A stretch of 40,000 nt of DNA, taken from assembly GCF_900094325.1 (NCBI RefSeq), contig NZ_LT604072.1. The stretch is one strand, 5' to 3'. The notes below the pieces were generated by a model that had not been told where the DNA came from, searched no databases, and saw nothing but the letters and a program-made list of their open reading frames with translations. The position numbers and the translations under genes were made by a program. Positions 8,171 to 24,828 of this stretch are shown here, piece by piece. The DNA is from Xanthomonas translucens pv. translucens DSM 18974. GTDB taxonomy: Bacteria; Pseudomonadota; Gammaproteobacteria; Xanthomonadales; Xanthomonadaceae. Positions within the stretch are counted from its first letter, which is position 1. Each line of letters begins with the position of its first letter.

Positions 8171-8210
8171 GCAGCCGGGATGCGGCATCGGGAATGCGGC
8201 ATGCGGCATG

Positions 8211-8237
8211 CGGCCGGCAGCGATGCCGGCCGTTTTT
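8211..8237 (+). terminator. Rho-independent terminator downstream of fabV
   Basis: CGGCCGGCA-gcga-TGCCGGCCG stem followed by TTTTT, about 40 nt after the fabV stop. Confidence 0.7.
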
Positions 8238-8249
8238 CTGTGAGTGCCT

Positions 8250-8726
8250 GTCGCGGCTGAAGCCGCTCCTACACAAGCGCGCAGCTCTCCTGTAGGAGCG
8301 GCTTCAGCCGCGACCGGAACGATGAAACCACCGCGGCGCGAATCGGATGGGAGGTGCGGCCTGCGCCTGCAATCAGGCGCGTTGGATGGCGTCCCGCGCG
8401 CTCCCACAAGGAGCGCGGCCGGCCACCGCGGAGACTGTGCCGGTCGCCACTGTGGGAGCGACTTCAGTCGCGACGCGGGAAATCAGGGCCGCCGCTGCGC
8501 CGGGCATTGCAAATCCGCACATGGAAACCGCCCGGTACCTGAAGCGTGTCGCCGCTCGCGGTTGAAGCCGCTCCTGCAAAGGCGGGAATTCGGGGTTCGT
8601 GGTGGCCTCGATGCCGGGTTTCCCATGGGGAGCTTGGCATCGCGACCGCCTCATTTTCCGGTCGCGGCTGAAGCCGCTCCTACAAGAGCGTGCTGCGCTC
8701 CCTGTAGGAGCGGCTTCAGCCGCGAC
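8250..8726. repeat. Cluster of six REP units (three inverted pairs) of the GTCGCGGCTGAAGCCGCTCCTACA family
   Basis: Units at 8250-8273(-)/8291-8314(+), 8451-8474(+)/8555-8578(-) and 8661-8684(-)/8703-8726(+). Orientation alternates and spacing is irregular. Confidence 0.85.
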
Positions 8727-8792
8727 AGGAACACGAATCGCCAGCAACCCCGTGCCGCGCGCAAAAACGCCGCCACCAGCGCTCCCACGGAT

Positions 8793-8823
8793 CCCCATTC
8801 CCCATTCCCCATTCCCCATTCCC
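8793..8823. repeat. Heptanucleotide microsatellite (CCCCATT) x about 4.4
   Basis: Read directly immediately downstream of the kdgK stop (minus strand). A second heptamer run (ATGCGGC) x3 lies at 8194-8214. Confidence 0.9.
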
Positions 8824-8829
8824 GGCCTT

Positions 8830-9852: not shown

Positions 9853-10151
9853 GGCAGGAGGATCCTGATCGATCGAAGGGGAGGCCAAGCATGCCGGGAA
9901 CGGCGGCCACAGCCAAGTTTTTTGACTATCGGTGTCATTTTTCGCGGCGGCCAGGGGGCCAGCGTCGCAGCGGCTGCGCCAGGCCAGGCACGGCTTTGTG
10001 CCGAAAGCCCGCAAATTCGGCGCGGTTTCTGTTGCGCTGCAAGATGCCGCAATGTTTCGCAACTGTTAACGTCGATTTTGACCAGCGGTGTCATCCGCGG
10101 CAAACAGCCCGAAATATCACGCAGTTCATGTAACCCTTGGGAGGGGAGGAC

Positions 10152-12950
10152 ATGCAATCTCGCACTGAACGCCGGAAGACACCGGTTACCTTGCTCGCGC
10201 TCTCGATCGGACTGGCCCTGCAGGCCGGCATCGTCCAGGCACAGGACGTTCCCGCGACCGCCAGTGGTGCCACCGAGCCGGCCACCCAGCTCGACACGGT
10301 CACCGTCACCGGTTACCGCGCCAGCGTGGAGAAGGCGCTGGACATCAAGCGCGGCGAAGCCGGGGTGGTCGACGCCATCGTGGCCGAGGACGTCGGCAAG
10401 TTCCCCGACCTCAACCTGGCCGAATCGTTGCAGCGTATCCCCGGCGTGGTCATCACCCGCGAGGCGGGCGAGGGCCGCAGCATCTCGGTGCGCGGCCTCG
10501 GCCCGGACTTCACCCGGGTGCGCATCAACGGCATGGAAGCGCTGACCACGGTCGGCGCCGGCGACCAGAGCGGCGGCACCAATCGCGGCCGCGGCTTCGA
10601 CTTCAATGTGTTCGCCTCCGACCTGTTCTCGCAATTGATCGTGCGCAAGACCGCCTCGGCCGATGTCGAAGAAGGTTCGCTCGGCGCCACCGTCGACCTG
10701 AAGACCGCGCGCCCGTTCGACTACAGCGGCTTCACCTTCGTCGCCAGCGGCCAGGCCGGCTACAACGCGATGGCGCAGAAGGCCGATCCGCGCCTGGCCG
10801 CGCTGATCTCCAACACCTTCGCCGACGGCACCTTCGGCGCGCTGCTGTCGGTGGCCTACTCCGAGCGCCAGGCGCTGGAGGAAGGCTCCAACACCGGCCG
10901 CTGGGCCGGCGGCACCAGCAACGGCGGCTTCGCGGCGTCCTCGCCGTACGCGGCCGCGCGCGCGGCCAACGTCTACCAGCCGCGCTTCCCGCGCTACGTG
11001 CAGATGGAGCACGCGCAAAAGCGCCTGGGCGTGACCGGCTCGCTGCAGTGGAAGCCCAGCGACGCCACCGAGATCGCGCTGGATACGCTGTATTCCAAGA
11101 TCGACGCCGAGCGCGACGAACACTACATCGAAGCGATCTCCTTCAGCCGCAACCGCGATGCGGCCACCGGCGCGGCGCGGCGTCCCGACCGCGACGGCAA
11201 GCCCACCACCATCGTGCGCAACGGCGAGATCCGCAACAACGCGCTGGTCTACGGCGAGTTCGACAACGCCGACATCCGCAGCGAGAACCGCCACGACGAG
11301 TGGAACACCGTGTTCAAGCAGATCGGCCTCAGCGCGCAGCACCGCTTCAGCGACGACGTCACCCTGTCCGGCAAGGTCGGCACCTCGCGCTCCAGGCACG
11401 AGAACCCGGTGCAGACCACCATCATCATGGACAAGTACGACGTCGATGGTTACAGCTACGACTACCGCGGCAACAGCCGTGCGCCGGTGATCAACTACGG
11501 TATCGACACCACCGATCCGCGTGGCTGGGAACTGGCCGAGATCCGCCTGCGTCCGCAGTACGTGGACAACGACTTCGACACCGGCCAGATCGACTTCAAC
11601 TGGAACATCAGTCCCGGCTTCCGGCTCAAGGGCGGCGTGCTGGCCAAGGACTACACCTTCAAGACCGTGGAACTGCGCCGCGCCTCGGAAAGCACCGTGC
11701 CCAACTTCGCCAATGGCACCAAGCTCGTGCCGGTGGACATGACCGGGCAGGCCGGACTCAAGGGCATCGCCGGCAGCCCGTCGAACTGGGTGATCCCGGA
11801 TCTGAACGCCTTCGTCGATGGCTTCGACCTCTACAGCAACAGCGGTCTGTTCGCCGTCGCCCCGCGCAGCAACAACAGCCGCAGGGTGGAAGAGAAGGAC
11901 CGCGGCGCCTACCTGATGGGCGAGTTCTCCACCGACCTGGGCAACATTCCGCTGTCGGGCAACATCGGCGTGCGCTACGTGCGCACCAAGCAGGCCTCCA
12001 CCGGCTATGCGCTGATCAACAACGTGCCGACCCAGACCACGGTCGAGCGCAGCTACGACGACACCTTGCCCTCGTTCAACCTGGTCGCCGAGGTCACCCC
12101 GGACTTCCTGATCCGCCTGGGCGCGGCCAAAGTGATGACCCGCCCGGGCCTGGGCAGCCTGACCCCGGGCGTGACCGTCGCCGTGGCCGGCGGCGCGCGC
12201 ACCGTCAGCGGCGGCAACCCGGATCTGGACCCGATCCGCGCCACCAACGTCGACCTGGGTTTCGAGTGGTACTTCGACGAAGGCGCCATGGCCGGCGTCG
12301 GCCTGTTCTACAAGGACATCGACAGCTTCATCCAGACCGCGCGCGAAGTGCGTCCGTATTCCAGCAGCGGCCTGCCGGCATCGCTGCTCGACGGCACCAA
12401 CGCCTCGGTCAACGACGATTTCACCTTCAGCATCCCGCTCAACACCCCCGGCGGCAAGCTCAAGGGCGTGGAAGCCAACTACATCCAGCCCTTCACCTTC
12501 CTGCCCGGCAAGTGGTCCAACCTGGGCGTGCAGTTGAACTACACCTGGGTCGATTCGCAGATCCAGTACCTGGACAACACCGGCAAGCCGGTGATGAAGA
12601 ACGACCTCACCGGCCTGTCCAAGTCCTCATGGAACGCCACCGTGTTCTACGAAGGCGAGGTGTTCTCCGGGCGCGTCTCGGCCACCAACCGCGACGACTA
12701 CTTGACCCAGGCGCCGGGCACCGAAGCCGGCTTCAACGTCGACGGCACCCACGGCATGACCGGCACCACCGTCATCGACGCCTCGCTGCGCTACAGGATC
12801 AGCGAGCAGCTGGAACTGAGCCTGGAAGGCATCAACCTGACCAACGAAGCGTCCGACGAGTGGGTGTACTCGCCGACCACCGGGCGCCTGCCGCTGCAAT
12901 ACACCGAAACCGGCCGCCAGTACCTGCTCGGCGTGCGCTACAAGTTCTGA
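10152..12950 (+). CDS. TonB-dependent receptor (outer-membrane transporter), carbohydrate-locus type
   Basis: ATG at 10152 is preceded by GGAGGGGAGGA. It has a signal peptide ending AQAQ, a plug region (DTVTVTGYR, VDAIVAEDVGKFPDLNLAESLQRIPGV) and a C-terminal beta-barrel ending LLGVRYKF. Confidence 0.9.
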   Translation: MQSRTERRKTPVTLLALSIGLALQAGIVQAQDVPATASGATEPATQLDTVTVTGYRASVEKALDIKRGEAGVVDAIVAEDVGKFPDLNLAESLQRIPGVVITREAGEGRSISVRGLGPDFTRVRINGMEALTTVGAGDQSGGTNRGRGFDFNVFASDLFSQLIVRKTASADVEEGSLGATVDLKTARPFDYSGFTFVASGQAGYNAMAQKADPRLAALISNTFADGTFGALLSVAYSERQALEEGSNTGRWAGGTSNGGFAASSPYAAARAANVYQPRFPRYVQMEHAQKRLGVTGSLQWKPSDATEIALDTLYSKIDAERDEHYIEAISFSRNRDAATGAARRPDRDGKPTTIVRNGEIRNNALVYGEFDNADIRSENRHDEWNTVFKQIGLSAQHRFSDDVTLSGKVGTSRSRHENPVQTTIIMDKYDVDGYSYDYRGNSRAPVINYGIDTTDPRGWELAEIRLRPQYVDNDFDTGQIDFNWNISPGFRLKGGVLAKDYTFKTVELRRASESTVPNFANGTKLVPVDMTGQAGLKGIAGSPSNWVIPDLNAFVDGFDLYSNSGLFAVAPRSNNSRRVEEKDRGAYLMGEFSTDLGNIPLSGNIGVRYVRTKQASTGYALINNVPTQTTVERSYDDTLPSFNLVAEVTPDFLIRLGAAKVMTRPGLGSLTPGVTVAVAGGARTVSGGNPDLDPIRATNVDLGFEWYFDEGAMAGVGLFYKDIDSFIQTAREVRPYSSSGLPASLLDGTNASVNDDFTFSIPLNTPGGKLKGVEANYIQPFTFLPGKWSNLGVQLNYTWVDSQIQYLDNTGKPVMKNDLTGLSKSSWNATVFYEGEVFSGRVSATNRDDYLTQAPGTEAGFNVDGTHGMTGTTVIDASLRYRISEQLELSLEGINLTNEASDEWVYSPTTGRLPLQYTETGRQYLLGVRYKF

Positions 12951-13136
12951 GTCACACGCCCGCTGGTGTCGCGTGGCCCCGCGCGGCCCCCGCCATGCCC
13001 GCTGCCTGCATACTCGCCGGATCGGGGCTAGGGAGGATCGCCGTGCGGCGGCACGTGCGCACGGCGATCGCAAAGGAGCGATATGGAAGACGCAATCCGC
13101 CGCAGCGCCGCGCGCGCTGCCGCCATCTTGTTCCCC

Positions 13137-13160
13137 TGTAGGAGCGGCTTCAGCCGCGAC
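13137..13160 (+). repeat. Single REP unit TGTAGGAGCGGCTTCAGCCGCGAC
   Basis: Exact match to the window's REP family. It lies in the TBDR/LamG intergenic region, which argues against the 13083 ORF start. Confidence 0.85.
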
Positions 13161-13211
13161 AAGCACTCCCCGTCCCGCGATCCCGCGCCGCCCGCGCGCC
13201 GCTGCGCACGG

Positions 13212-16200
13212 ATGGGTCTCGAAACCCCCACGAATACCGGCAATCGCATCCTGGCCCGCTGCCTGGTCATGCTGTCCTGCCTCGCACTCCCGGCCTTCGC
13301 CGCCCCCGCACCCACCAGCAGCGCCCCCGACCTGCTGTTCCGCGTCTCCGCCGACCACGGCTTCGACGCCGACATCGCCCAGGGCGACGCCACCCCCAAC
13401 GTCCGCGACAAGGTCGCGCTCGTCGCCACCGGCGTGAAGGGCAACGCGATCGCCTGGGCCGACGACGGCGTCCTCGCCTGGAACGCCCCCGGCAACCTCT
13501 ACACCCAGCGCGGCACGCTCTCCTTCTTCTGGCGCGCGCGCGATCCGGTCGGCGAAGCCCCGTTCGTGATCTTCCGCGTCGGCTACGCCGACCACAGCAG
13601 CTGGGACATGGCCTGGCTGCGCATCGACTGGAACGGCCACGGCTTCGACGCCTTCGTCACCGACGCCAACCTGGCGCGCACCCGCGTGTCGTTCACCCTC
13701 GACAAGAACCCCACCGCCAGCCAATGGACCCACCTCGCCTTCGCCTGGGACGAAACCCGCGGCGTGCGCCTGTATGTGGACGGCAAGGACGCCGCGCGCG
13801 CCGACTGCGCGCAAGCCTGCGCCGACGGCGGCGCGCTCGACTTCGACGCCGCGCTCGACCAACTCGGCCTGGCCGGGCGGGTGATGGCCCCCCACCAGGT
13901 GCAGAGCCGCTACAACTTCCTGCGCGGCAGCGACTTCGACGAGATCCGCATCTACGACCGCATGCTCGACGCCGCCGGCGCCGCGGCCCTGGCGCGCCAG
14001 CAGGAACCGCGCAGCGCTGAACCGCCGCGCGCCGACGCCGCGCGCAACGCCTGGCTGCACCGCTACGGCTGGGACCACGGCCACGCGCCCCCCGTGCTGG
14101 ACGCGCCGTCCACCCGCATCCGCAAGGTCGAATTCGCCGATGCCAGGGACCTCAAGCAGTGGATGTGGAAAGCCACCGACGGCATCGCCGAGACCACCTG
14201 GCCCGGCGTCTACAACCGCTCGCGCCTGCCCGGCCGCAACGACTACTTCCAGTTGCCGGATTGGAACACCTACGTCGAAGGCGGCAAGGCGCTGGACCTG
14301 GCCCTGCCCGACGAACCGTTCAACCGCATCGAACTGCGCGGCGCCGCTGACGGCCAGGCCAGCTACGCCGCCGCCGGCGCCACACTCGCGCCGCTGTTCC
14401 AGCGCACGCAAGGCACCGTGCGCAGCGTCGATCAGTTCGAGCGCCGCCGCGGCGGCCGCCTGCGCTTCACCAACACCGCGCAGGAAACCCCGATCCAGGA
14501 AATCTGGGCCTACGACGTCAGCGCCGGCGCGCCGCCGTCCGACCCCAGCGCCACCCTCAGCTACACCGTGCGCAGCGACATCGCCCCCGACTACGCCAAC
14601 CTCGCCGCCTTGCGCAGCGACATCGCCGGACGCTATCCGCAGGGCGAGCGCAGCACCGTGGTCGCCCTGCCGAGCAAGGCGCCGGCGCGCAAGCGCAGCG
14701 CCGAAACATCCGCAGCGCCGCCGTTGCCCATCGTGCACGTGCTGATCCCCTCCAGCCTCGGCGACGCCCCGCCGGACCAGCCGCTGATGCGCAGCTGGTC
14801 CTACGGCTGGGAAAACATGCACGACGGCCTGGACGGCATCGCCATCGACCTGCCGGCGCTGGACCTGCCCGCCACCCACGACGGCCTGATCCCGCTCAAC
14901 CTCCGCATCAAGGACCCGATCTGGCCGGCGCGCGACATGCTCGACGTGTCGGTATCGGTCAAGCCCGGCCAGCCGCGCACGCTGTGGCTGGACCTGCGCG
15001 ACCGCATCCTGAGCAACGACAGCCTGATGCTCAGCATCGCCTCCGCCGCGCCCGGCTTCGACACGCGCGCGCTGGACGGCGCGCAACTGCGCCTGCTGTT
15101 CAAGCCGCGCGACCAGGCCAAGGCCGAACACATCGCCGACCGCTTCAACCAGGTCAAGGACAACTGGGGCTTCCTGGTCGAGGAACACACCACCTCCAAG
15201 CGCCAGCGGCTGTACGCGCGCCTGGATGCCGACATCGGCGACCTGCTGCGCGTGGACCCGGATAACGCGCTCGCCCGCCAATACTGGAACGACATCGGCT
15301 ACGGCAACCAGAGCGCGCTGCCGGTGGACCTGCCCACCCCGCCCAAGGGCGTGCCGGCCTGGGCATTCTGGCAACTGGAAGACCTCAAGGCCACGCGCCG
15401 CTACATCCGCTGGTGGATCGACGAGCGGCAAGTGGATTACGGCGATTTCGGCGGCGGCATCTCCGACGATTCCGACCTCACCCAGCAATGGCCCGGCGTC
15501 GCCCTGATGGGCGTGGACCCGGATCTACTCAACGCCTCGCTGACCGCGCTGTCCGACGCCAACTACCGCAACGGCATGTTCACCGACGGCCTGTCCACCA
15601 TCGAGACCGACGAACTGCATGCCTACGAAGAAGGCATCAACCTCAACAGCGCCATGCTCTACCTCAACTGGGGCGACCCGCTCACCGTCGAGCGCCTGAT
15701 GCGCACGGTGAAGGCCTTCGAGCGCATCATCCAGGTCAACCCACAAGGCCACCTGCTGTTCGCCAGCAACTGGTTCGGCGGGCGCAAGGTCTACCGCGAG
15801 CCGAACTGGCAGTGGCAGAAACCCTATTCGTTCCCGGTACTGCACCCGGCCCTGCTACTCGGCGGCTACAACGCCGACCCCAACAGCCGCCGCATCGTCA
15901 CCGGCCTGGCCGACGGCTACCTCGCCTACGCGTACACCAATGCCAAGGGCCAATGGGCGCTGCCCAACGAGATCAACTGGAAGACCGGCAACACCCGCGG
16001 CGGCGAACTGTTCGAAGGCAGCGGCGGCGCCGACACCCTGCACACCTTCTGGGCCGCCTGGCGCTGGACCGGCGAAGCGCGCTACCTCAAACCCATCGAC
16101 TACCGCGTCGCCAACGCCGGCCCGGCGGGCCTGTCGCTGCTCAACGAAAATTTCCTGGACCTGCTCGGCAAACGCGACAGCTGGGGCGCCGACCTGGCCA

Positions 16201-17081
16201 AGGCCGCCGCTAAACCTGATGCCGTCCCCGACTTCGCCCACCACGCGGCCTGGGAAGCCACGGGCGACACCGCCTGGCTGGCAACCCTGTACCGCGCCGA
16301 GACCCGCGACAAGTTGCAGAGCTTCTACATGAACACCGAAGGCCACTGGTGGAGCGACCGCGTCGAATCGCCCACCGTGCACCTGCAGCGCGCCCGCCTG
16401 GGCGGCGTGGCGCTCAAGCGCAACCAGACCTACCCCGGCCACACCGTCAGCTGGCGCTTCGCCGACCCCGAAGGCGCCGTGCAGGTGGCCCTGCTGCTGC
16501 CCAAACCGCGGCAGGACCGCTTCACCGTCATCGGCTACAACACCAGCGGCACGCTGCAGCGGGCGCAGATGACCGGCTGGAATGTGGCCGCCGGGCAATG
16601 GCGCATGCGCTCGGGCCTCGATCGCGATGGCGACGGGCGCATCGACGGCAACGCCGCCACGCGCGAGTTCGCGTTCGAAAAGAGCGGGGCGGTGGAGGTG
16701 GAATTCCCGGCTGGCAAGACGGTGGTGATGGAGTTCGAACTCATCGAGCCTGCGGCGGTGCCGGTGGAGCATCGGCCGGATCTGGGGATTGGGCGTGGCG
16801 ATGTGCGGGTGAGCGCGGGGGCTATCGAGGTCACCGTGCACAGTCTTGGTCATGCGGATGCGCCAGGGGGATTCGTGGTGCTGGAAGACGCGCGTGGCCG
16901 GGAAGTGGCGCGGGCGGCGTTTCCTGCGTTGGAGGCGCCGCGGGATTTGGAGCCTAGGACTGCGAAGGTGCGGTTGGCGTTGCCAGCTGGTGTAATTGGC
17001 AAGGAAGCGCGTTTGCGTGTGATGACGGAAGTAGAGGTTGCGGAAGTCACGCAGCTCAACAATTCGATGAAGTTACCGTGA
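13212..17081 (+). CDS. Large secreted LamG/concanavalin-like domain protein of unknown enzymatic function (1289 aa)
   Basis: ATG at 13212 gives a signal peptide (ILARCLVMLSCLALPAFAAP). The N-terminal region (GTLSFFWRA...WTHLAFAWDETRGVRLYVDG) has the Laminin_G_3 pattern. The remainder is not recognised. It is co-oriented directly after the TBDR. Confidence 0.8.
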   Translation: MGLETPTNTGNRILARCLVMLSCLALPAFAAPAPTSSAPDLLFRVSADHGFDADIAQGDATPNVRDKVALVATGVKGNAIAWADDGVLAWNAPGNLYTQRGTLSFFWRARDPVGEAPFVIFRVGYADHSSWDMAWLRIDWNGHGFDAFVTDANLARTRVSFTLDKNPTASQWTHLAFAWDETRGVRLYVDGKDAARADCAQACADGGALDFDAALDQLGLAGRVMAPHQVQSRYNFLRGSDFDEIRIYDRMLDAAGAAALARQQEPRSAEPPRADAARNAWLHRYGWDHGHAPPVLDAPSTRIRKVEFADARDLKQWMWKATDGIAETTWPGVYNRSRLPGRNDYFQLPDWNTYVEGGKALDLALPDEPFNRIELRGAADGQASYAAAGATLAPLFQRTQGTVRSVDQFERRRGGRLRFTNTAQETPIQEIWAYDVSAGAPPSDPSATLSYTVRSDIAPDYANLAALRSDIAGRYPQGERSTVVALPSKAPARKRSAETSAAPPLPIVHVLIPSSLGDAPPDQPLMRSWSYGWENMHDGLDGIAIDLPALDLPATHDGLIPLNLRIKDPIWPARDMLDVSVSVKPGQPRTLWLDLRDRILSNDSLMLSIASAAPGFDTRALDGAQLRLLFKPRDQAKAEHIADRFNQVKDNWGFLVEEHTTSKRQRLYARLDADIGDLLRVDPDNALARQYWNDIGYGNQSALPVDLPTPPKGVPAWAFWQLEDLKATRRYIRWWIDERQVDYGDFGGGISDDSDLTQQWPGVALMGVDPDLLNASLTALSDANYRNGMFTDGLSTIETDELHAYEEGINLNSAMLYLNWGDPLTVERLMRTVKAFERIIQVNPQGHLLFASNWFGGRKVYREPNWQWQKPYSFPVLHPALLLGGYNADPNSRRIVTGLADGYLAYAYTNAKGQWALPNEINWKTGNTRGGELFEGSGGADTLHTFWAAWRWTGEARYLKPIDYRVANAGPAGLSLLNENFLDLLGKRDSWGADLAKAAAKPDAVPDFAHHAAWEATGDTAWLATLYRAETRDKLQSFYMNTEGHWWSDRVESPTVHLQRARLGGVALKRNQTYPGHTVSWRFADPEGAVQVALLLPKPRQDRFTVIGYNTSGTLQRAQMTGWNVAAGQWRMRSGLDRDGDGRIDGNAATREFAFEKSGAVEVEFPAGKTVVMEFELIEPAAVPVEHRPDLGIGRGDVRVSAGAIEVTVHSLGHADAPGGFVVLEDARGREVARAAFPALEAPRDLEPRTAKVRLALPAGVIGKEARLRVMTEVEVAEVTQLNNSMKLP

Positions 17082-17500: not shown

Positions 17501-18406
17501 ATGCAAGCAACTTATTATCAATACTACTTCACCAAAGGGAACGGCCAGAAAAAATACTCCGCAGATCTGCGAAATTTCCTGCAGAAGTATTGTTCATGGA
17601 AAATTCCAGTGTTTAAGTCCCAGTTCGAGCATGCAGGTGAGCGTCTTTATCTAGTACATACAGTTGGCGACCAATACTTGTTCCTGCACACACTGGATAA
17701 GGAAATAATTAAGAAAATTGACTCGAAAAACCTCACTTTGGCTGATCTTAAATCACACCTTGCTGGAGACTCTGCCGGCTTTGCTTCATATGTAAATTTC
17801 CGAGGAGACTTTTTTGGTATTGCTTGTAAAGTGCTTTCGCCTCGAGGTGCGACCTTCGCAAGCTATATTAACCAGGTAATTGAGGCGTTGAATCTCCCTT
17901 ATAAGTTCCACGCGGTCGCTCTTACGCATCAAATGCAGCGAAAAGATATTTCGAAACTCAGTCGTGTAGGGAAAATTACGGTTGAGCTTCAGAGGGACAA
18001 TAAGCTTCACGAAGACTTAGTTGAGTTTATTAGTGGTCAAACCGGACAGAATTATGCGGAAGTCGGTCCCGTTGAAATAACGATTCGGCCAGAAAAGAGG
18101 CTCGGAAACATTAAAGCGATTTTACAAGGTGTTTCTTCGCAAATAGGTCAGAAAGGTGTTTCTGACTTTGAAGCTCGGGCAGTCACCGCCCTTGCTGATA
18201 AAGTTATTGATGTATATTTGGTGGGAGAGGGCGCAGTGCGCCATTCAATTAGTGGCGATACAGATGCAAAGATTCAGGCAGATTTTGACAAGCAGATGAG
18301 CCGAAATGCGCTGTTGCAAGAAAAGCTCAAGGAAATGAGATCTAACGTCAATGTACAGAAAACTACGTTTGCTGACCTTGATAGTCCTGCTAAGCCACGG
18401 AATTAG
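17501..18406 (+). CDS. RexA-like protein (phage lambda exclusion/abortive-infection sensor component homologue)
   Basis: 301-aa soluble protein with GGGGGAG SD 5 nt upstream, strongly AT-rich. Blocks RLYLVHTVGDQYLFLHT and DLKSHLAGDSAGFASYVNFRGDFFGIA align with remembered lambda RexA YLYIHKIDGKTFLFTKT and DIKNSLADDESLGFPSFLFVEGDTIGFA. Length is similar (279 aa in lambda). Confidence 0.65.
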   Translation: MQATYYQYYFTKGNGQKKYSADLRNFLQKYCSWKIPVFKSQFEHAGERLYLVHTVGDQYLFLHTLDKEIIKKIDSKNLTLADLKSHLAGDSAGFASYVNFRGDFFGIACKVLSPRGATFASYINQVIEALNLPYKFHAVALTHQMQRKDISKLSRVGKITVELQRDNKLHEDLVEFISGQTGQNYAEVGPVEITIRPEKRLGNIKAILQGVSSQIGQKGVSDFEARAVTALADKVIDVYLVGEGAVRHSISGDTDAKIQADFDKQMSRNALLQEKLKEMRSNVNVQKTTFADLDSPAKPRN

Positions 18407-18812
18407 CTACTGTGCCACATTCCTTATTCCCTCTGGGACGTCGGTAACCATTACGAGTGTTCCAGGGCGTATTGAGTCATTGGCAGCATTGCTAGCTAGT
18501 TTCGCGTTTACGATGCTCGGCTTTTTAGCAGCATTGTTGGCGCTATTCGGAATAATGTCCGGCTCATCATTGTTGGCTGGGTATAAGAAACACGGACATT
18601 TGACTGTCTTGTTGCTAGTAATTGGTATAACTATGGTTGAGCTTGTTTTTACATTTGGAGCTTCCTTAGGTTTATATTTCACTCCGCTAACAGATGGGTA
18701 TGCCAAATTTATGGCCTGGCTTGTTACAACAAACTTTGTGATGCTATTAGTGAGCACCCTTCCAGTTATTATGCTGGTTAAAGGTACACTTGATAGTATC
18801 AAGCACGAATAA
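18351..18812 (+). CDS. RexB-like small four-helix membrane protein
   Basis: 153 aa with four hydrophobic segments (about residues 5-26, 43-69, 84-110 and 119-142). It overlaps the rexA-like gene by 56 nt. YKKHGHLTVLLLVIGITMVELVFTF resembles remembered lambda RexB REYGYMTSVVIVYALSFVELGALFF (144 aa, 4 TM). Confidence 0.65.
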   Translation: MYRKLRLLTLIVLLSHGISYCATFLIPSGTSVTITSVPGRIESLAALLASFAFTMLGFLAALLALFGIMSGSSLLAGYKKHGHLTVLLLVIGITMVELVFTFGASLGLYFTPLTDGYAKFMAWLVTTNFVMLLVSTLPVIMLVKGTLDSIKHE

Positions 18813-18850
18813 AAATTCGACTGCATTCGCAATATAGGTGCAACAAAGAA

Positions 18851-18868
18851 CAAGGGGCCGGAGGTAAT
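18851..18868. repeat. Solitary left-arm-like copy (CAAGGGGCCGGAGGTAAT) of the island palindromic element
   Basis: Matches the left arm CAAAGGGGCCAGAGGAAAT of elements A-D. No matching right arm occurs nearby. Confidence 0.4.
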
Positions 18869-19043
18869 TAAGCGAACAATTTCTATTGGCTGTCGCGGTA
18901 GCAATGAAAATGGGGTCAGAGTGAAATTATTTCGATGTTCCGCACCTACTGAAGTGCACTCAAACCTCAGGATAAGAGTGTACTTTTGTCCATGTCTGTG
19001 CCCTATAAGTGCACCTTGACCACCCGTCCATTGAGGAAAGCCG

Positions 19044-19868
19044 ATGTCCCTAGTTCTGGAGTTGCAGCGAGCCGCAATGGATCAGAGCCAAAGTGTGTCT
19101 GACGTACTAAGGAAAGCTCTCGTCGTGTCAACCAAACTGAAGTTGATAGACTTCCAGCAGTGGTGCGATCTTGAGGTAAATGGATACGGTGGAGCCGAAG
19201 TTCCGCCGTATCGAATTGTTAATGGGACCGTAAAAGCCCACAATCCATACAATGGGTGGATTCCGGTCATTATGAGTGACAGCGAGTCGCAGCAATTAAT
19301 CTCACAGAGAGCTGTCGGACAGCCGGTCGGAGAATTGGAGCATCTAGTTTCGAGCAAAGAGAAAGGGCATTTGCAAATGACCTTTCCTTCGGAGGCACTG
19401 TACAAGATTTTTGGTCGCAGCGAGTCGTTCCAACTTGGTATGATCCCTATACTTATCATCGGGAGAAGTCAGGTAGTCAGTATACTTGAAGCGGTACGCA
19501 ATAAAATTTTGAATTGGAGTTTGACGCTGGAGCAAAATGGAGTTCTTGGCGAGGATCTTACGTTCACAAAAGAAGAAGTACAAAAAGCTTCTGGCGCAAC
19601 TTACAATATTGGTCAATTCCACGGTGTACTAGGTAATGTTTTGCACTCTGAAGTCCAAGTTGGCGACTACAACGGTATTCATTCCAAACTAAAAGACGCC
19701 GGTATCCCACAGAAGGAGAGAAACGAGCTGGAACAGATACTAGATGACATGCCGAAGGCGCAAGGGCCTCGCCGTACGTCACTTATGGCTCAGGGTGCAG
19801 CGTGGGTAGTTAGAAATGGTGAAAAACTAGGTGCACTATCAGGTGCAATAAAAGAGTGGTTCGAGTAA
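19044..19868 (+). CDS. AbiTii-domain protein (abortive-infection family candidate)
   Basis: 274 aa with GAGGAAAG SD. N-terminal LELQRAAMDQSQSVSDVLRKALVVSTKLKLIDFQQWCDLEVNGY...PPYR, plus central ILEAVRNKILNWSLTLEQNGVLGEDLTFTKEE, match my recollection of AbiTii-domain proteins. Confidence 0.55.
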   Translation: MSLVLELQRAAMDQSQSVSDVLRKALVVSTKLKLIDFQQWCDLEVNGYGGAEVPPYRIVNGTVKAHNPYNGWIPVIMSDSESQQLISQRAVGQPVGELEHLVSSKEKGHLQMTFPSEALYKIFGRSESFQLGMIPILIIGRSQVVSILEAVRNKILNWSLTLEQNGVLGEDLTFTKEEVQKASGATYNIGQFHGVLGNVLHSEVQVGDYNGIHSKLKDAGIPQKERNELEQILDDMPKAQGPRRTSLMAQGAAWVVRNGEKLGALSGAIKEWFE

Positions 19869-19887: not shown

Positions 19888-19940
19888 CAAAGGGGCAGAG
19901 GAAATATGCGTTTGAAATGGGTATTGCCTCTGGCCCCTTT
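19888..19940. repeat. Island palindromic element A (about 20-bp arms, 13-nt loop)
   Basis: CAAAGGGGCAGAGGAAATAT gcgtttgaaatgg GTATTGCCTCTGGCCCCTTT. It begins 20 nt after the AbiTii-like stop. A partial left-arm duplication (tgcaaagg) lies just upstream. Confidence 0.85.
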
Positions 19941-19941
19941 A

Positions 19942-20078
19942 TAGCGCGCCCGCCTCGGCGGCGTCGCCATCAAGCTCAACCAGACCTACCACGGCGACAC
20001 CGTCAGCTGACCCCGAAGGCGCGGTGCAGGTGGCCCTGCTGCTGCCCAAGCCCCGCCAGAACCGCTTCACCGTCATTA
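19942..20078 (+). pseudogene. Captured, diverged fragment of a LamG-protein gene homologue (matches 16386-16530 of the intact gene)
   Basis: Alignment by eye shows roughly nine-tenths identity over about 140 bp with a 12-bp deletion (ctggcgcttcgcc region). It is bounded exactly by palindromic elements A and B. Confidence 0.8.
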
Positions 20079-20157
20079 GTTCAAGGGCCTAGTTCAAAGG
20101 GGCCAGAGGAAATATGCAAATAAAGGGGTCGGAGGAAATAAATTTCTCCTCCGGCTC
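20079..20157. repeat. Island palindromic element B (duplicated left arm plus variant hairpin)
   Basis: gttcaagggcct agttCAAAGGGGCCAGAGGAAATATgc, followed by the variant hairpin GGGGTCGGAGGAAAT-aaa-TTTCTCCTCCGGCTCT. Confidence 0.75.
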
Positions 20158-20180
20158 TAATTTTCCACAATGGAGCCAAC

Positions 20181-20510
20181 ATGTACGCTGCAATCGTCCT
20201 CTTCGCAACACTAATCACCTTGCTCGCCCCAACATTGGCATTCGCACATCCAGGCGGTCTGAACGCCGAAGGCTGCCACAACAACCGGAAGACCGGTGAG
20301 TACCATTGCCACCGAGGTGGCGCTTCTGGCTCCGGAAGCTCTGCTGTCCCTCGGCATAGCTTCTCTGCACCAGCCCGGGCCAGTGCCAACACTCTGCCGT
20401 TTGCCAACTGCACCGAAGCTCGGGCCGCGGGCGCCGCCCCCGTCCGCCGTGGCGATCCAGGGTACGCTCCCAAGTTGGACCGCGATAACGATGGCATTGG
20501 GTGCGAGTGA
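20181..20510 (+). CDS. Secreted YHYH-motif / Excalibur calcium-binding domain protein
   Basis: 109 aa with a signal peptide (AIVLFATLITLLAPTLAFA), the YHYH-type motif HPGGLNAEGCHNNRKTGEYHCH, and the C-terminal Excalibur motif FANCTEARAAGAAPVRRGDPGYAPKLDRDNDGIGCE. Confidence 0.8.
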   Translation: MYAAIVLFATLITLLAPTLAFAHPGGLNAEGCHNNRKTGEYHCHRGGASGSGSSAVPRHSFSAPARASANTLPFANCTEARAAGAAPVRRGDPGYAPKLDRDNDGIGCE

Positions 20511-20725
20511 TATCCAGAGGCTTGAGCACAACAGCCCGTCCAAGCTGAGGTCGCTTCGCTGTGTGGCCTAATTTGCAGGTCTGCTGTGAGCAGAGAAGAG
20601 ATCTGCGATAGCAGCATCAAGTTCACTTTCAATCTTGCAATTTCGCCACTTCTATCAGTTGACATTCGAAACAACCAGTAGCAATCTATTGCCCAAGGAG
20701 CGTAGAAACTCCTCTAAGAGCGGTA

Positions 20726-20754: not shown

Positions 20755-20916
20755 GTGCCTGATCCTCAGGCGCAACCGATGCGATGCTTGCGTCGGGAGG
20801 GCGGCTAATACAACACCCTTCGGGGAAATAAGCCCGCCGTCTCTTAGCGGTTTCTAACCTCCCGACATCCCGTCGCCGGCCGGCGGCGGGTTCCTGTCCG
20901 ACAAGGAGGCTTCGCC

Positions 20917-21270
20917 ATGCGTCAACCGTCACCCCGTCCCGCCCCTGCGCGCAAGCATGCCACGCGCAAGGCTGCCTGCTGCCCGAACTGGACCATCGTC
21001 GAGTCCGAGCTCATCCCCATGCTGACGCCCGAGCAGATCGCCGCGGCCGACGCCGCCGAGCTTGCGCGCCAACAACGCCCTCCACGCCGCACGCGCCCGC
21101 CGCAGCGCTGCACCGTCGGCCGCATCCACCAGGCCGCCAGCGGCCAGACCGTGCCGGCGCTGCGCCTGTGCGGCCGCTGGATGGAGGAACTGGGCTTCGC
21201 CATCGGCCAGACCTTGCACGTGCGCGTGCGCGACGGCGAGCTGGTGGTGAGCGTGGCCGCCGCCGATTGA
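20917..21270 (+). CDS. symE: SymE-family (AbrB/SpoVT-fold) type I toxin-like protein
   Basis: 117 aa with a strong SD (AAGGAGG) 7 nt upstream. C-terminal PALRLCGRWMEELGFAIGQTLHVRVRDGELVV matches the SymE-family motif (P.LRL.GrWLe.aGF..G..v.V....g.L.i). The N-terminal half is basic and disordered, as in annotated SymE toxins. Confidence 0.65.
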   Translation: MRQPSPRPAPARKHATRKAACCPNWTIVESELIPMLTPEQIAAADAAELARQQRPPRRTRPPQRCTVGRIHQAASGQTVPALRLCGRWMEELGFAIGQTLHVRVRDGELVVSVAAAD

Positions 21271-21468
21271 TCGGTCACCGTGCATAAAGGGAGCCCACGC
21301 GTGCGGCTATCTATGCCTGCCATGGGGTCGCACACGCCGGCTGTCTGGACAGGCCTCGCGGTATCGTGCCCGCGTATACGTCAGACCGCAGCGTGTTTGG
21401 CCTGGGGTTGACCACGTGGCCCTTCGCTTGCTAAAAGCCTCAGCGCAGGGGTGTATAGGAGATTGAAG

Positions 21469-22686
21469 ATGAGGACCACTTCAAGATTTCTGTTATGTGC
21501 ATTGTTGAATTTTCCTTTCGCACTTGTAGCCCAAGCGCAAGGTGTGCAGGCCGATAGCGTTGAAGCAAAGTCTTATGCAAAAAGCGCAATGATATCGGAG
21601 CAAGAAGCGGCAAAGCGGATTAACTTACAGCAAGGCTCTCAACAGCAAGTTGCCGGGCTAGTGGAGAAATATAGAGATAGGTTGGCTGGTGCATATTGGG
21701 AGGAAGAACCTGAGCTGAGGTTCGTGGTTCGGCTCAAAGGAAGCGAACCCGTCCCTGTTGCTAAAATATCGACAACGTTTGGCGACGTTCCTGTTGTCGT
21801 TAAAACAGGCGCCCCTAAAACTATTGAGGAGCTTTGGGCGATAATAACGGCGCATCAGCAAGAATTATACAAAAATATCCCCGGGCTACAAGGTATGTTT
21901 GTCGACGAGCGTACCGGCGATATTGTTCTTCATGTTTATACCAAGAGTAATGATAAAAGCTCCTACTCGGATGAGGCCGCGTCGCTACAGAAGATTCTTC
22001 AGACACCCGTGCGAATTGACTTCCTTGTAGGTCCAATGCGCCCCGCAGCATATCTGAGAGGAGGATCTATACTGCAAGGATCCAATGGAAATCTCTGCAC
22101 GGGCGGATTTATGGTCAGGCATAGGGCAACTTCCAAAGTCGGAATAGTGACCGCCGGGCATTGTCCTGACACCATGGTCTACTACAATTGGCAGCCATAC
22201 GATAGCGGAGGCCAGATTACGGCAATATTGAAGAAAGAGGGTGAATTATGGGACGCCAAACACGATCTTCAGTGGCATAGCTTCCCTGCAGTGGGATACT
22301 CCGCTCTCGGAGAGATATATGGTTCCGGCACTAGCGAAAGCTCTGGTCTATCCATTCTGTTTGCGGGTGCGCAGAGTGTAGGAGGGCGCATATGCCATCG
22401 CGGCGTCAACACAGGAAACTCATGCGGTGTGGTGTCAAGCACGCGATATAGTTTCCCACCTAAAGCATGCAACGGCAAAAATTGTGATGCAGCCTCGTTC
22501 GCGGTTGCTGTAGGTGATAACTTAGCATGCTTTGGCAGTGATAGCGGAGGGCCAATGTATTCTGGTAACACCGCATATGGCATTGTGACAGCCGCGGCTT
22601 ATGCCGGCGCCAATCCAGGCCAATGCGGCGCCTTGGCTTTCATGCCCATTGGAAAAATTGCGGACGCTGGATTGTCACTCTACTGA
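21469..22686 (+). CDS. Secreted alpha-lytic-protease-like serine peptidase (S1 family, chymotrypsin fold) with N-terminal pro-region
   Basis: ATG at 21469 after AGGAG, with a signal peptide (FLLCALLNFPFALVAQA). Catalytic contexts IVTAGHC (His) and GSDSGGPM (Ser) are present. A pro-domain of about 190 aa lies ahead of the protease core. AT-rich relative to the backbone. Confidence 0.85.
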   Translation: MRTTSRFLLCALLNFPFALVAQAQGVQADSVEAKSYAKSAMISEQEAAKRINLQQGSQQQVAGLVEKYRDRLAGAYWEEEPELRFVVRLKGSEPVPVAKISTTFGDVPVVVKTGAPKTIEELWAIITAHQQELYKNIPGLQGMFVDERTGDIVLHVYTKSNDKSSYSDEAASLQKILQTPVRIDFLVGPMRPAAYLRGGSILQGSNGNLCTGGFMVRHRATSKVGIVTAGHCPDTMVYYNWQPYDSGGQITAILKKEGELWDAKHDLQWHSFPAVGYSALGEIYGSGTSESSGLSILFAGAQSVGGRICHRGVNTGNSCGVVSSTRYSFPPKACNGKNCDAASFAVAVGDNLACFGSDSGGPMYSGNTAYGIVTAAAYAGANPGQCGALAFMPIGKIADAGLSLY

Positions 22687-22716
22687 TGGCGCGCAACTGA
22701 AAAGTCGCGGATATTT

Positions 22717-22743
22717 CCCGCCGCCGGTCGGCGGCGGGTTTTT
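22717..22743 (+). terminator. Rho-independent terminator after the protease gene
   Basis: CCCGCCGCC-ggtc-GGCGGCGGG followed by TTTTT. A second copy lies at 24222-24248 and a T-less relic at about 20868-20892. Confidence 0.75.
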
Positions 22744-22817
22744 CCACCGTCATCCCGCCCTGCCCTGGCGCGCAAGCGTTCAAAACCTAAAGCAAGTTGC
22801 TGCCCGAACTGGACCAT
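22744..22817 (+). pseudogene. symE 5' fragment (truncated at element C)
   Basis: The sequence ...gcaagttgctgcccgaactggaccat matches the symE 5' coding region (gctgcctgctgcccgaactggaccatcgtcgag), then breaks into element C. An in-frame TAA lies upstream and there is no SD/ATG. Confidence 0.7.
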
Positions 22818-22824
22818 AAGGGTT

Positions 22825-22878
22825 CAAAGGGGCCAGAGGAAATATGCATTTGAGATGGATATTTCCTCTGGCCATTTG
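22825..22878. repeat. Island palindromic element C
   Basis: CAAAGGGGCCAGAGGAAATAT gcatttgagatgg ATATTTCCTCTGGCCATTTG. Confidence 0.85.
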
Positions 22879-23260
22879 GATTTTAAGTCTTAGTTTTTAT
22901 AAGTTATGAATTTGATGGCGCGGACGGCAACTTTCGCAGGGCAAATGGCTGCAGTTTGTTCTTTCCTCGTGCCCGGCATCTTAGAGCTGCATTTTGACCC
23001 CGGTTCCCAACAACACGCTGGCGGTGCGGTGAATGCTGGGAAAAGACACAGCGCCGGTTTCCCCGGCTTCTTCGTTATACCGCTAATAGGGCGTTGAGCA
23101 AGCAAAAATGTGACGTGATGCCAGGCGGGAAGCTGACAATGCCGGGAAATGTGAGGTACATAAGGGCTTTGCCGGATTGACGGTGGTCAACAACTCGGCG
23201 AGGATCGTATTATGCCGCGCTTAGACGTCCAATGGTGGTTAGGCCTTTCTGGAGATATTT

Positions 23261-23551
23261 ATGGCAACCATAATTTCGCTTGCTGCCGAGTATGCAAACT
23301 ATCTGCTCTTGAATAGCGATAACCCTAGCGCTGCGAGCGAAATCGCTCAGAGAATCAATGAGCTCAAATATACACAATCTGGAGATTCATTAACTGACTT
23401 CGACAAGAATGATCTTGTAAATAATATTGAGTCAGTACTTCTTCCAGAGAAAAGGACTCCGGATGAACTCTCGATTGTCCTCGAGTCTAAGGATTCGAGC
23501 GAACTTAGCAAGTTGATCCAAGTAATCAGATCTAGCACTATGGGGAATTGA
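23261..23551 (+). CDS. Hypothetical small acidic helical protein (96 aa), first gene of an uncharacterised two-gene cassette
   Basis: ATG with GGAG 8 nt upstream, AT-rich. The stop overlaps the region of the next gene's start. No family was recognised. Confidence 0.5.
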   Translation: MATIISLAAEYANYLLLNSDNPSAASEIAQRINELKYTQSGDSLTDFDKNDLVNNIESVLLPEKRTPDELSIVLESKDSSELSKLIQVIRSSTMGN

Positions 23552-23553
23552 AA

Positions 23554-24084
23554 ATGAGTGGTCCGCTCGTAGTTGTACTAGTCCAACAACTTTCACTTAG
23601 AGTCGCAGCACTTGAGGGGAAAGAGTCCCAATTTTGGATTCCCGTTTTAATTTCAGTTGTGGCGGTGGCTACAAGTATTTTCACTGCTTATAAGGCAAAG
23701 CTCTCGTCCACCGAAAATCTTAAACAAATAGCTCTTCAGGGGATCAAGAGCAACATTGATGCAGCAAAAGCTCAAGTCGAATCGATCGCGATGCAACTTG
23801 CCCTCCTGAAGGCAAAGAGGTCACCAACTAAAGATCAAAAAGACGAACTCGCTATAAAGCAGCAGGTATTCGATAGCATGGTTGAACGACTACTTAATGC
23901 ATACAACGACGGGTGCCAGAAGTTCTATAAAAATCAGGTCATCGCCCAGGATTTCATTGACCTTTATCATCAAGACATTGCAGACTACATTCGCGAGTTT
24001 AAGGAAAAGTTCTCCGGGCCATTAACTAGATTCGATGCCATGCTCAACTATTACAACGAGAAGCACAAAAATCCAAAGGCTTAA
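23554..24084 (+). CDS. Hypothetical membrane-anchored helical protein (176 aa; alternative TTG start at 23548)
   Basis: One clear TM segment (FWIPVLISVVAVATSIFTAY) is followed by long, probably coiled-coil helices (KSNIDAAKAQVESIAMQLALLKAK...). It is tightly coupled to the upstream ORF. No family was recognised. Confidence 0.55.
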   Translation: MSGPLVVVLVQQLSLRVAALEGKESQFWIPVLISVVAVATSIFTAYKAKLSSTENLKQIALQGIKSNIDAAKAQVESIAMQLALLKAKRSPTKDQKDELAIKQQVFDSMVERLLNAYNDGCQKFYKNQVIAQDFIDLYHQDIADYIREFKEKFSGPLTRFDAMLNYYNEKHKNPKA

Positions 24085-24097
24085 CAATTCATTGGCG

Positions 24098-24150
24098 CAA
24101 AGGGCCAGAGGAAATATGCGTTTGAAATGGATATTTCCTCTGGCCCTTTT
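24098..24150. repeat. Island palindromic element D
   Basis: CAAAGGGCCAGAGGAAATAT gcgtttgaaatgg ATATTTCCTCTGGCCCTTTT, starting 14 nt after the 24084 stop. Confidence 0.85.
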
Positions 24151-24155
24151 AGCCG

Positions 24156-24420
24156 GGAAAAATTGCGGACGCTGGATTGTCGCTCTACTGATGGCGCGCA
24201 ACTGAAAAGTCGCGGATATTTCCCACCGCCGGTCGGCGGCGGGTTTTTCCACCGTCATCCCGCCCTGCCCTGGCGCGCAAGCGTTCAAAACCTAAAGCAA
24301 GTTGCTGCCCGAACTGGACCATCGTCGAGTCCGAGCTCATCCCCATGCTGGCGCCCGAGCAGACCAAGGACGTGGTCATGGCTTGCCCACGCTTGCAGGA
24401 GGTCGCCGGCTGCTTGGACT
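24156..24420 (+). pseudogene. Relic unit: last 12 codons of a protease paralogue, its terminator, and an internally deleted symE copy
   Basis: 24156-24322 is a near-identical direct repeat of 22651-22817 (ggaaaaattgcggacgctggattgtc...ctggaccat). The symE homology continues to ...atgctggcgcccgagcag, then jumps to the symE-protease spacer. Confidence 0.75.
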
Positions 24421-24486
24421 AGAGGTTGACCGCGTGGACTCTGGCTTGATAAAAAGCGCAGCGCAGGGGTGAATAGGAGATTGAAG

Positions 24487-24771
24487 ATGAGGACGACTTC
24501 AGAATTTCTATTGGCCGCATTGTTGAATGTGCCTTTTGCCCTTTTAGCGCAGACGCCAGGCGTCAAGGCGGATAGCGTTGAAGCCTGATCTTACGCAAAC
24601 AGCGCGATGCTCTCGGCGCAAGAGGCCGCAAGGCGGATTAACGTGCAGCAGGCCGCGCAACAGCAAGTTGCCGAGCAAGTGGAGAAATACAGGGATCGGT
24701 TGGCTGGTGCGTACTGGCAGGACGAACCCGAACTGAGGTTCGTGATTCGGCTCAAAGGAAACGCGTCCGTC
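24487..24771 (+). pseudogene. N-terminal fragment of an alpha-lytic-protease paralogue (nonsense codon plus truncation)
   Basis: It has the same SD/start context as 21469. The translation MRTTSEFLLAALLNVPFALLAQTPGVKADSVEA* stops at 24586-24588. Same-frame homology (..EKYRDRLAGAYWQDEPELRFVIRLKGNASVP) continues to about 24771, where palindrome fragments begin. Confidence 0.8.
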
Positions 24772-24801
24772 CCTCTGCCCCTTTTGCACTGGCCCCTTTT
24801 G
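24772..24801. repeat. Two right-arm fragments of the island palindromic element (F)
   Basis: CCTCTGCCCCTTTTG cA CTGGCCCCTTTTG. Both resemble the right-arm end CCTCTGGCCCCTTT. Confidence 0.6.
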
Positions 24802-24828
24802 CAGATCTTAGAGCAGACCAATGACGTA

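Follow-up and report, generated by a model that had tools for sequence, protein, structure and literature searches.

What kind of genetic element carries the two small genes that lie between a pair of palindromes and a pair of direct repeats in Xanthomonas translucens pv. translucens DSM 18974, and what might their products do? We addressed this question in a stretch of 40,000 nucleotides of contig NZ_LT604072.1, here referred to as the window; coordinates are positions in the window unless another locus is named. The upstream gene (23261-23551, + strand) encodes an acidic protein of 96 amino acids (pI 4.34), and the downstream gene (23554-24084, + strand) encodes a membrane protein of 176 amino acids (pI 9.04), or of 178 amino acids if an alternative TTG start at 23548 is used. 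The original prediction for this DNA took a 1338-bp segment between the repeats as a discrete unit and proposed that it encodes a defence pair of the toxin-antitoxin (TA) or abortive-infection (Abi) type. Based on comparisons with related loci, we suggest that the pair is a two-gene integron cassette inside a cluster of attC sites without an integrase (CALIN) that adjoins the gene lamG, a reading to which we assign a probability of about 85%. This integron-array context next to lamG is the key point that the original prediction missed.

The low-GC region that contains the pair extends from 17.1 to 24.9 kb. It begins directly after lamG (13083-17081), which encodes a protein of 1332 amino acids with a Laminin_G_3 domain, and is closed by a penicillin amidase gene on the opposite strand (24829-27237). 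The gene pair has a GC content of 0.42-0.43 compared to 0.69 in the flanking core genome, and a GC content at third codon positions of 0.44-0.46 compared to 0.90 in lamG. At the equivalent position after lamG, X. arboricola has a cassette array in which typical attC sites of the form GCCTAAC...GTTAGGC lie between the cassettes, and the X. arboricola gene pair is flanked by two attC sites in this array of about nine. A strict regular expression for attC (RYYYAAC...GTTRRRY with complementarity of the arms) gave zero matches in the window, and a covariance model, R2, built from seven attC sites of the X. arboricola array was used instead and run on other loci. The model gave scores of 62 and 54 bits for two sites in a sister strain with the same array (L011), neither of which was in the training set, nine matches in locus L001, a score of 27.7 bits for a site outside the training set directly upstream of the pair in Stenotrophomonas, and five matches of 30-39 bits in a metagenomic array. 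In the window it found a single, weak match (20525-20584, 18.7 bits) after a gene for an Excalibur-domain protein.

The attC-separated cassettes in L011 and L001, the weak site in the window and the published location at lamG thus all place the pair within a cassette array. In the sections of Colombi et al. (2025, Microb Genom, PMC12444791) considered here, Xanthomonas CALINs are described as adjoining lamG and/or secF, with CALINs at two positions in X. translucens. Because of the position after lamG, the attC-separated arrays in relatives and the published lamG CALINs, the region is an already-known locus type, a lamG-adjacent CALIN, here strongly decayed. With the CALINs in those sections it shares the location directly downstream of a Laminin_G_3 gene, low-GC cassettes, GCCTAAC...GTTAGGC attC sites, the lack of a nearby integrase and the presence of defence cassettes in the array. 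It differs from them in that most attC sites of the window are degraded or truncated, with one weak match remaining, and in that the array has been scrambled by hairpin-associated rearrangements; the present cassette and its two proteins are absent from the same sections. Two observations count against assigning the pair to a cassette, i.e. the degraded state of the attC sites in the window and the absence of an integrase among the annotated open reading frames (ORFs) from lamG to the penicillin amidase gene, the part of the 40-kb window that was inspected for intI. We class the locus as a CALIN rather than a complete integron and, given the degraded attC sites and the missing integrase, mobility of the cassette by IntI has probably been lost.

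Where does the cassette begin and end? Relatives align with the 1338-bp segment over differing extents, which does not bear out its status as a discrete unit. Positions 22884-24093 align at 95% with X. translucens pv. cerealis (L008 and L068), and homology to L008 stops at 24093. For the X. arboricola locus, which is more distant, the alignment is confined to 23240-24089, at 80%. The start of this alignment falls within GTTAGGC (23238-23244), an attC R' core, so that the 5' end of the cassette lies where it is expected, after the first G of a GTTRRRY core. This core ends a degenerate attC-like site (23185-23244, + strand) that forms the 5' cassette boundary and has AACAACTCGG in common with the canonical attC at 1158-1221 of L011; the site was not matched by model R2 and showed no significant folding. 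A conserved element of 85 nt upstream of the pair was considered as an attC hairpin and is unconvincing on folding energy alone, which is similar to that of shuffled sequences (z -0.1). The 3' boundary is a truncated attC (24079-24093, + strand) that consists of the R'' box GCTTAAC plus AATTCATT, fits the R''/L'' start of the Xanthomonas attC consensus GCCTAACAAnTCATT, and is cut by a hairpin, D. Of a complete 3' attC (R''-L''...L'-R') only GCTTAACAATTCATT (24079-24093) is left before hairpin D, and it gave no match to R2. The orthologous 3' attC sites are fuller, with 58.6 bits for L001 8525-8588, a site that is part of the training set, and 18.2 bits (E 0.04) for L008 10817-10896. Since the limits of the alignments coincide with an attC R' core and an R'' box, what has moved from species to species is the gene pair together with its attC-type ends, and the true cassette comprises roughly 23239-24093 plus the lost 3' half of its attC.

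The palindromes and repeats that had been taken as the limits of the unit do exist. Hairpin C (22826-22878, no strand assigned) has arms of about 20 nt and a loop of 13 nt, with a folding energy of -21.6 kcal/mol (z -9.2), and hairpin D (24098-24150, no strand assigned) has a folding energy of -26 kcal/mol (z -7.3), both calculated for a single strand against shuffles. The two are 92% identical to each other and were not matched by any shuffle of the window. The 167-bp direct repeats (22651-22817 and 24156-24322) are 99% identical. An alternative to the cassette model, which we consider distinctly unlikely, is that the block from C to D (22826-24150) is a composite resembling a miniature inverted-repeat transposable element, bounded by the hairpins, that inserted in symE, generated the 167-bp duplication and carries the two genes as cargo. 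Consistent with this idea, the block is present at 99.3% identity in other strains (L011-L014), assembly contigs of about 1.4 kb containing it terminate at the hairpins, its right flank is unlike between the window and L011, tandem duplications of a variable 10-16 nt are present at the hairpin bases, and the same hairpin is found in other metagenomic cassette arrays. The ends of the block, in contrast, cut through a gene, leaving its last 9 nt up to the stop codon, and through an attC, of which 15 nt are kept, arguing that the block is a fragment of an L008-like array and not a designed element and that palindromes and repeats do not delimit the unit. The left junction of the block is identical in the window, in L011 and in all other copies seen, so that independent insertions are unsupported, and in L011 unrelated DNA with Imm11 genes begins after hairpin D; because the right-hand 167-bp repeat is missing there, the repeat is not a target-site duplication of the block. 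Thus, of the hallmarks of a transposable element the block has terminal hairpins, and neither a short target duplication nor independent insertions nor an associated transposase was found. Moreover, the pair that moves across species has attC boundaries and lacks these hairpins.

The 167-bp repeats are copies of the junction between the 3' end of a protease gene and the 5' end of symE. Copy 1 (22651-22817, + strand) contains the last 36 nt of a protease gene for 411 amino acids, a G+C-rich terminator hairpin (22717-22738) and a symE-like 5' start, and its end resembles the symE start at 20925-20997. Copy 2 (24156-24322, + strand) runs on into a deleted symE and a protease pseudogene, part of which (24424-24723) is 80% identical to 21406-21705 of the first protease copy; the module, therefore, lies between two tandem symE-protease units. 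The second, degenerate unit occupies 24323-24950, has an internally deleted symE and reaches the 3' end of the opposite-strand penicillin amidase gene.

Compared to the L008-type arrangement, the array of the window consists of pieces joined at hairpins. Hairpin C lies at the join between a 5' fragment of symE and the 9 nt that end a small-protein gene. Two related copies lie further upstream, i.e. hairpin A (19889-19940) and hairpin B (20096-20119), of which only the left arm is present, and between them is a 134-bp fragment of lamG (19943-20076) with a frameshift that is 84% identical to 16387-16531 and matches the start of the truncated lamG copy heading the L008 array. The hairpin left arm also occurs alone, after an attC core in X. 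arboricola (GTTAGGCCAGAGGAAACTATGCG) and, in a form that can be read as a ribosome-binding site followed by ATG, at the end of the L008/L068 array. In a metagenomic cassette array (L153), a complete hairpin overlies the 3' portion of a canonical attC, with a GTTGGAT core after it. The bases that flank the hairpin core vary among copies and yet stay complementary (CAAC/GTTG versus GC(T)A/TAGC). We conclude that hairpins C and D are associated with attC sites, mark the junctions of rearrangements and lie outside the functional module, which we continue to regard as an integron cassette.

Several further observations concern the hairpins themselves. The left arm corresponds to an attC R'-core-like sequence followed by the ribosome-binding site and ATG of a cassette start. 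Further copies of this family of about 53 bp are present in L011 (31-50, 4041-4094 and 5319-5376) and in L151, L152 and L153, and as far as observed the family is seen only in cassette arrays. A scan of a genome collection with GGCCAGAGGAAN{1,2}TATGC returned chance matches almost exclusively, L068 (X. translucens pv. cerealis) being the only relevant one, and we therefore give no estimate of the copy number. A second hairpin family comprises hairpin B', a different hairpin located after B in the window (20122-20169), and L001 12830-12880, 13538-13590 and 14701-14753 (AA[A/C]GGGGTC.G...C.GACCC TTTTCCACA); its stem sequences differ, its flanks are the same, and its members are often found just upstream of cassette ORFs or beside truncated symE.

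An ORF-poor stretch of about 380 bp separates hairpin C from the first gene, as had been described. This leader (22884-23237, + strand) is a leftover of the neighbouring cassette: it contains the 3' end of a gene for a secreted, His-rich protein of 67-83 amino acids followed by an ORF-less spacer. It opens with AAGTCTTAG, the last 9 nt of the small secreted-protein gene, which is intact (67 amino acids) in L008 and L010, and it is 91% identical to L008 9621-10000. The suggestion that the leader encodes an RNA component, i.e. a regulatory or antitoxin RNA of a type I/III-like module, is in our opinion very improbable. In its favour, the leader has a small terminator-like hairpin (23053-23067) and is 91% conserved among members of the X. 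translucens group, and the neighbouring symE cassette carries a small RNA (sRNA). Speaking against it, Rfam finds nothing in the leader, the leader is less conserved than the coding region, and the loci of X. arboricola, Stenotrophomonas, Pseudomonas, Dyella and the plasmids keep the pair and have no such leader in front of it.

The promoter proposed earlier, TCAACA-15-TATTAT, did not hold up in the alignment, in which its hexamers vary between loci. A conserved promoter-like motif is present at 23177-23205 (+ strand), in which TTGACG and GAGGAT are separated by 17 nt. The TTGAC of the first hexamer together with A2, A5 and T6 of the second are invariant at six sites (the window, L008, L011 and three in X. 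arboricola; counted as three genomes), one of which is the head of the X. arboricola array after lamG. This conservation makes TTGACG-17-GAGGAT a probable promoter. The sequence GGATTGAC, which opens the motif in the window (23173-23182), is also found in L153 at 1700-1745 (minus strand shown), where it overlaps an attC R' core (GTTGGATTGACA) at which an ORF-less mini-cassette starts. This overlap suggests that promoter-bearing ORF-less cassettes exist.

The features of the two gene products are largely as originally described. Concerning the low-GC, translationally coupled genes, the adjacency and the alternative TTG start were confirmed, and the gap between the stop codon and the ATG is 2 nt. 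The pair thus has the arrangement of adjacent, co-oriented and translationally coupled small genes that is found in type II TA systems. In AlphaFold2 models built from family alignments, both proteins are all-helical: the small acidic protein forms four helices (pLDDT 80, pTM 0.73), and the 176-amino-acid protein (pLDDT 81, pTM 0.66) consists of a single N-terminal transmembrane (TM) helix (residues 27-47, its one hydrophobic helix), a coiled stalk and a conserved C-terminal helical head. The N-terminal side of the TM helix is acidic or short and the C-terminal side is rich in Lys and Arg; this charge distribution predicts an N-out/C-in topology, in which the head would face the cytoplasm, where the partner, which has no signal peptide, is located. 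Both genes are under purifying selection, and the small partner evolves faster (dN/dS of 0.15-0.34 versus 0.04-0.09 for the membrane protein). The gene for the 176-amino-acid protein in L007 was considered as a pseudogene, hinting at toxin loss, and this was dismissed as a difference in gene calling, the DNA being identical to that of L008.

The proteins closest to the pair are from Xanthomonas graminis/translucens and are 99-100% identical. Close homologues are rare: among 5.8 billion sequences, 22 and 8 clusters were found. When 1.84 billion representatives were searched with a profile, the membrane protein gave 323 clusters (50% identity), 81 of them at E <= 1e-10. Family members are mostly 135-180 amino acids in length, and align from the TM helix to the C-terminus. 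Common to them are a TM helix, a linker that varies in length and a head bearing the motif E..LNAYE.AC.KY...K.DK..F, of which E111, C121 and F134 are invariant in the sampled family alignment. Longer members, considered as fusions of both partners, have only expanded linkers. A gene for 86-113 amino acids lies directly upstream of the membrane-protein gene in 13 of the 13 loci with available upstream DNA, with a spacing that ranges from an overlap of 17 nt to a gap of 16 nt. These loci are from X. arboricola, Pseudomonas, Dyella, the X. translucens group and Stenotrophomonas, from a 9.4-kb Shewanella plasmid and a 4.8-kb Serratia plasmid, and from five contexts in metagenomes or metagenome-assembled genomes including Treponema. 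The small partners from nine aligned loci are homologous, with a PL(T/S)..K...IE segment and a C-terminal D-S/N-S..L..L helix. The gene pair is, accordingly, a conserved two-component module across distant bacteria and mobile elements. On the Serratia marcescens plasmid AP028541.1 (L137), a complete homologue of the pair (108 and 158 amino acids, 1-nt overlap) is located at 3702-4504 on the minus strand; it is unannotated in the PLSDB gene table for this plasmid, which may be incomplete.

The statement that no family could be assigned to either protein was borne out, as both proteins and the sampled relatives fell below the curated thresholds of Pfam, PADLOC, PHROGs and NCBIfam. In Foldseek searches of the models against the PDB and viral models the best E value was 0.07, profile searches of PDB sequences returned coiled-coil noise only, and neither protein had a tblastn match among 50,697 phage records. 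Thus, no clear homology to a housekeeping family or a phage structural or lysis family, which would have spoken against a defence pair, was detected. Neither a type II TA fold nor a DNA-binding antitoxin domain was found in Pfam, NCBIfam, PADLOC or the PDB, and the pair has no similarity to RexA, RexB or other Abi proteins, unlike the neighbours at 17501-19868, which match. The only recurrent weak signal was to DUF4760 (PF15956), a family of likewise small proteins of about 150 amino acids: three of 38 distant relatives of the 176-amino-acid protein gave a signal (best E 3e-5), the Pfam gathering threshold was not reached, and the protein of the window had no match. As the function of DUF4760 is not known, this link adds no mechanism.

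Combining the architecture of the pair with its genomic contexts, we tentatively suggest, at somewhat less than even odds, that the two proteins form a TA-like or Abi-like conflict module. This model builds on the architecture, the defence, TA and mobile contexts of the homologues, and the richness of integron cassettes in defence genes; experiments have shown that such cassettes contain many TA and small defence systems (bioRxiv 10.1101/2024.07.02.601686). The charge complementarity of the partners (pI 4.3 versus 9.0), dN/dS values below 0.35 for both genes with faster evolution of the small partner, and the lack of copies in phage genomes also count for it. In this model, the 176-amino-acid protein would insert N-out/C-in with stalk and conserved head on the cytoplasmic side, and the acidic cytosolic protein of 96 amino acids would bind the head and keep the membrane protein inactive, or would act as a sensor. 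Upon phage infection or loss of the module, the membrane protein would be freed and self-associate, and would cause damage to the inner membrane or growth arrest. Transcription would probably initiate at TTGACG-17-GAGGAT in the attC-like element upstream and would, thus, be independent of the integron Pc promoter.

The contexts of the homologues are diverse. In X. arboricola, SIR2 and HerA genes are immediately upstream of the pair; in Pseudomonas the neighbours are an integrase, a DUF4238 gene and an HSDR_N_2 gene, and in Dyella a MobA relaxase gene and an IS3 element. One homologue is near a HEPN_Toprim_N gene, a PycTM-containing (Pycsar) operon and two AbiEi/AbiEii pairs, and at separate loci PIN_12 and Fic genes, an MC2 gene and an RVT_1 gene are found. 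RelE TA pairs are present on both small plasmids (4.8 kb and 9.4 kb) that carry the pair, and on the 4.8-kb plasmid the other identified genes are the RelE pair and a gene for a predicted replication protein, so assigned by us from its sequence and annotated as hypothetical. Overall, known defence genes (SIR2 and HerA, Pycsar, AbiE, DUF4238, RexAB/AbiTii and MC2) lie within 7 kb in about half of approximately 15 loci, and TA or mobile-element genes are present at nearly all of them.

Several lines of evidence weigh against a conflict module. Neither protein matches PADLOC or any TA family, no homology to toxicity or defence proteins was found, and the small partner lacks, in Pfam and NCBIfam, the DNA-binding domain typical of type II antitoxins. 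The single TM helix, variable stalk and conserved head look more like a tethered binding or enzymatic domain than a pore former, and fit a non-lethal membrane-tethered function equally well. Two homologues are inside capsule-synthesis loci, and the association with defence neighbourhoods is a qualitative count over approximately 15 loci without a background-corrected statistic. These observations can be combined in a different explanation, which we deem unlikely, in which the pair is a non-toxic accessory membrane module, e.g. for envelope or capsule regulation or for stress signalling, and ordinary cargo of cassettes and plasmids. The coiled stalk and the head with its invariant Glu, Cys and Phe behind a TM helix, the two copies within capsule polysaccharide loci and the negative PADLOC and family searches are all in line with this explanation, as is the statement in the consulted sections of Colombi et al. 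(PMC12444791) that Xanthomonas cassettes are mostly of unknown, not necessarily defensive, function. It accounts less well for the occurrence of the pair on a 4.8-kb plasmid with little else than the predicted replication protein and the RelE TA pair, and for its repeated location beside known defence and TA genes. Also, a capsule-locus copy adjoins a PIN TA pair and an insertion sequence (IS) element, which suggests insertion. The proposal of a TA/Abi-type pair, which goes back to the original prediction, is thus in part upheld by the lack of a housekeeping or phage family, the conserved pairing and the mobile and defence contexts of the homologues, and we prefer the conflict module as a working model.

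Two known systems resemble the pair. Sucellos (SclAB) of Vibrio cholerae (Darracq et al., bioRxiv 10.1101/2024.07.02.601686) is likewise a two-gene integron cassette with a soluble and a membrane partner and its own promoter, the latter being predicted here, and with an Abi logic that for the present pair is the working model. Sucellos is structurally RexAB-like, whereas the present pair has no similarity to RexA or RexB, and its membrane partner is a multi-TM channel, in contrast to the one TM helix with a cytosolic head described here. Sucellos was therefore ruled out as a homologue of the pair, and its parallel is the neighbouring RexAB cassette (17501-18812). The second comprises TA pairs such as SpoIISA/SpoIISB, in which a small protein neutralises a membrane toxin. 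The present pair is similar in having a membrane-anchored protein with a cytosolic domain and a small acidic cytosolic partner, encoded by adjacent, coupled genes on mobile DNA; it differs in lacking any similarity of sequence or fold, in having the small-partner gene first, and in having one TM helix instead of three in the membrane protein.

The remainder of the array is made up of other small cassettes. The first low-GC block after lamG (17501-19868), which ends at hairpin A, encodes a RexA-like protein (301 amino acids; Pfam E 4e-50), an overlapping RexB-like protein (153 amino acids; PADLOC E 9e-8) and AbiTii (274 amino acids; E 5e-45). The low GC content and these Pfam and PADLOC matches substantiate the foreign composition and the RexA/RexB/AbiTii neighbours noted originally. 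The arrangement of the RexAB genes (17501-18812) parallels that of the published RexAB-like cassette Sucellos. Downstream, a gene for a protein of 109 amino acids with an Excalibur calcium-binding domain and a signal peptide occupies, together with its weak attC, 20181-20584. It is followed by sRNA-Xcc1 (20792-20874; Rfam RF02221, 76 bits), immediately upstream of the SymE toxin gene (20917-21270); this sRNA has been described as integron-borne, which is in keeping with the array context. The sRNA-symE unit recurs beside the pair in L001, L008, L010 and L011, with the sRNA region of L008 cut short by a fragment of an IS4/IS5 transposase. The secreted serine protease gene (21451-22686; 411 amino acids, GC 0.50) has a weak Trypsin match (E 0.007), and its product looks, as far as can be read from its sequence, like alpha-lytic protease; the gene travels with symE as a repeated unit. 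In L011 the pair is followed, at 5464-10447, by three Imm11 immunity genes and a gene for an XVIPCD-domain protein (X-Tfe type IV secretion effector), i.e. the cassette array of this strain abuts a locus for interbacterial competition.

Among the small cassette-borne two-gene modules the pair is a new and uncharacterised one; the type of locus in which it resides is already known. Recent work has identified integron cassettes as reservoirs of compact anti-phage systems, and for most cassette genes no function is known. The pair is a good candidate in this respect: it is 0.8 kb in length and easily cloned, is absent from the family and defence databases searched, has an apparent promoter of its own, and its two-gene architecture is kept from Xanthomonas to Treponema and gut bacteria. 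The proteins may found an undescribed, widespread two-component conflict system, in which a membrane-tethered head and a small acidic partner serve phage defence or addiction on cassettes, plasmids and defence islands, and, separately, the 53-bp hairpins may be a new attC-derived class of elements conserved in structure that shuffles cassette fragments without an integrase; we consider this reading rather unlikely. The locus shows the decay of an integrase-less cassette array and its reshuffling at hairpin elements. If the conflict-module model is correct, the pair would represent a new protein family, possibly with a new membrane-based effector mechanism, and would add a defence cassette to the repertoire of an important cereal pathogen.

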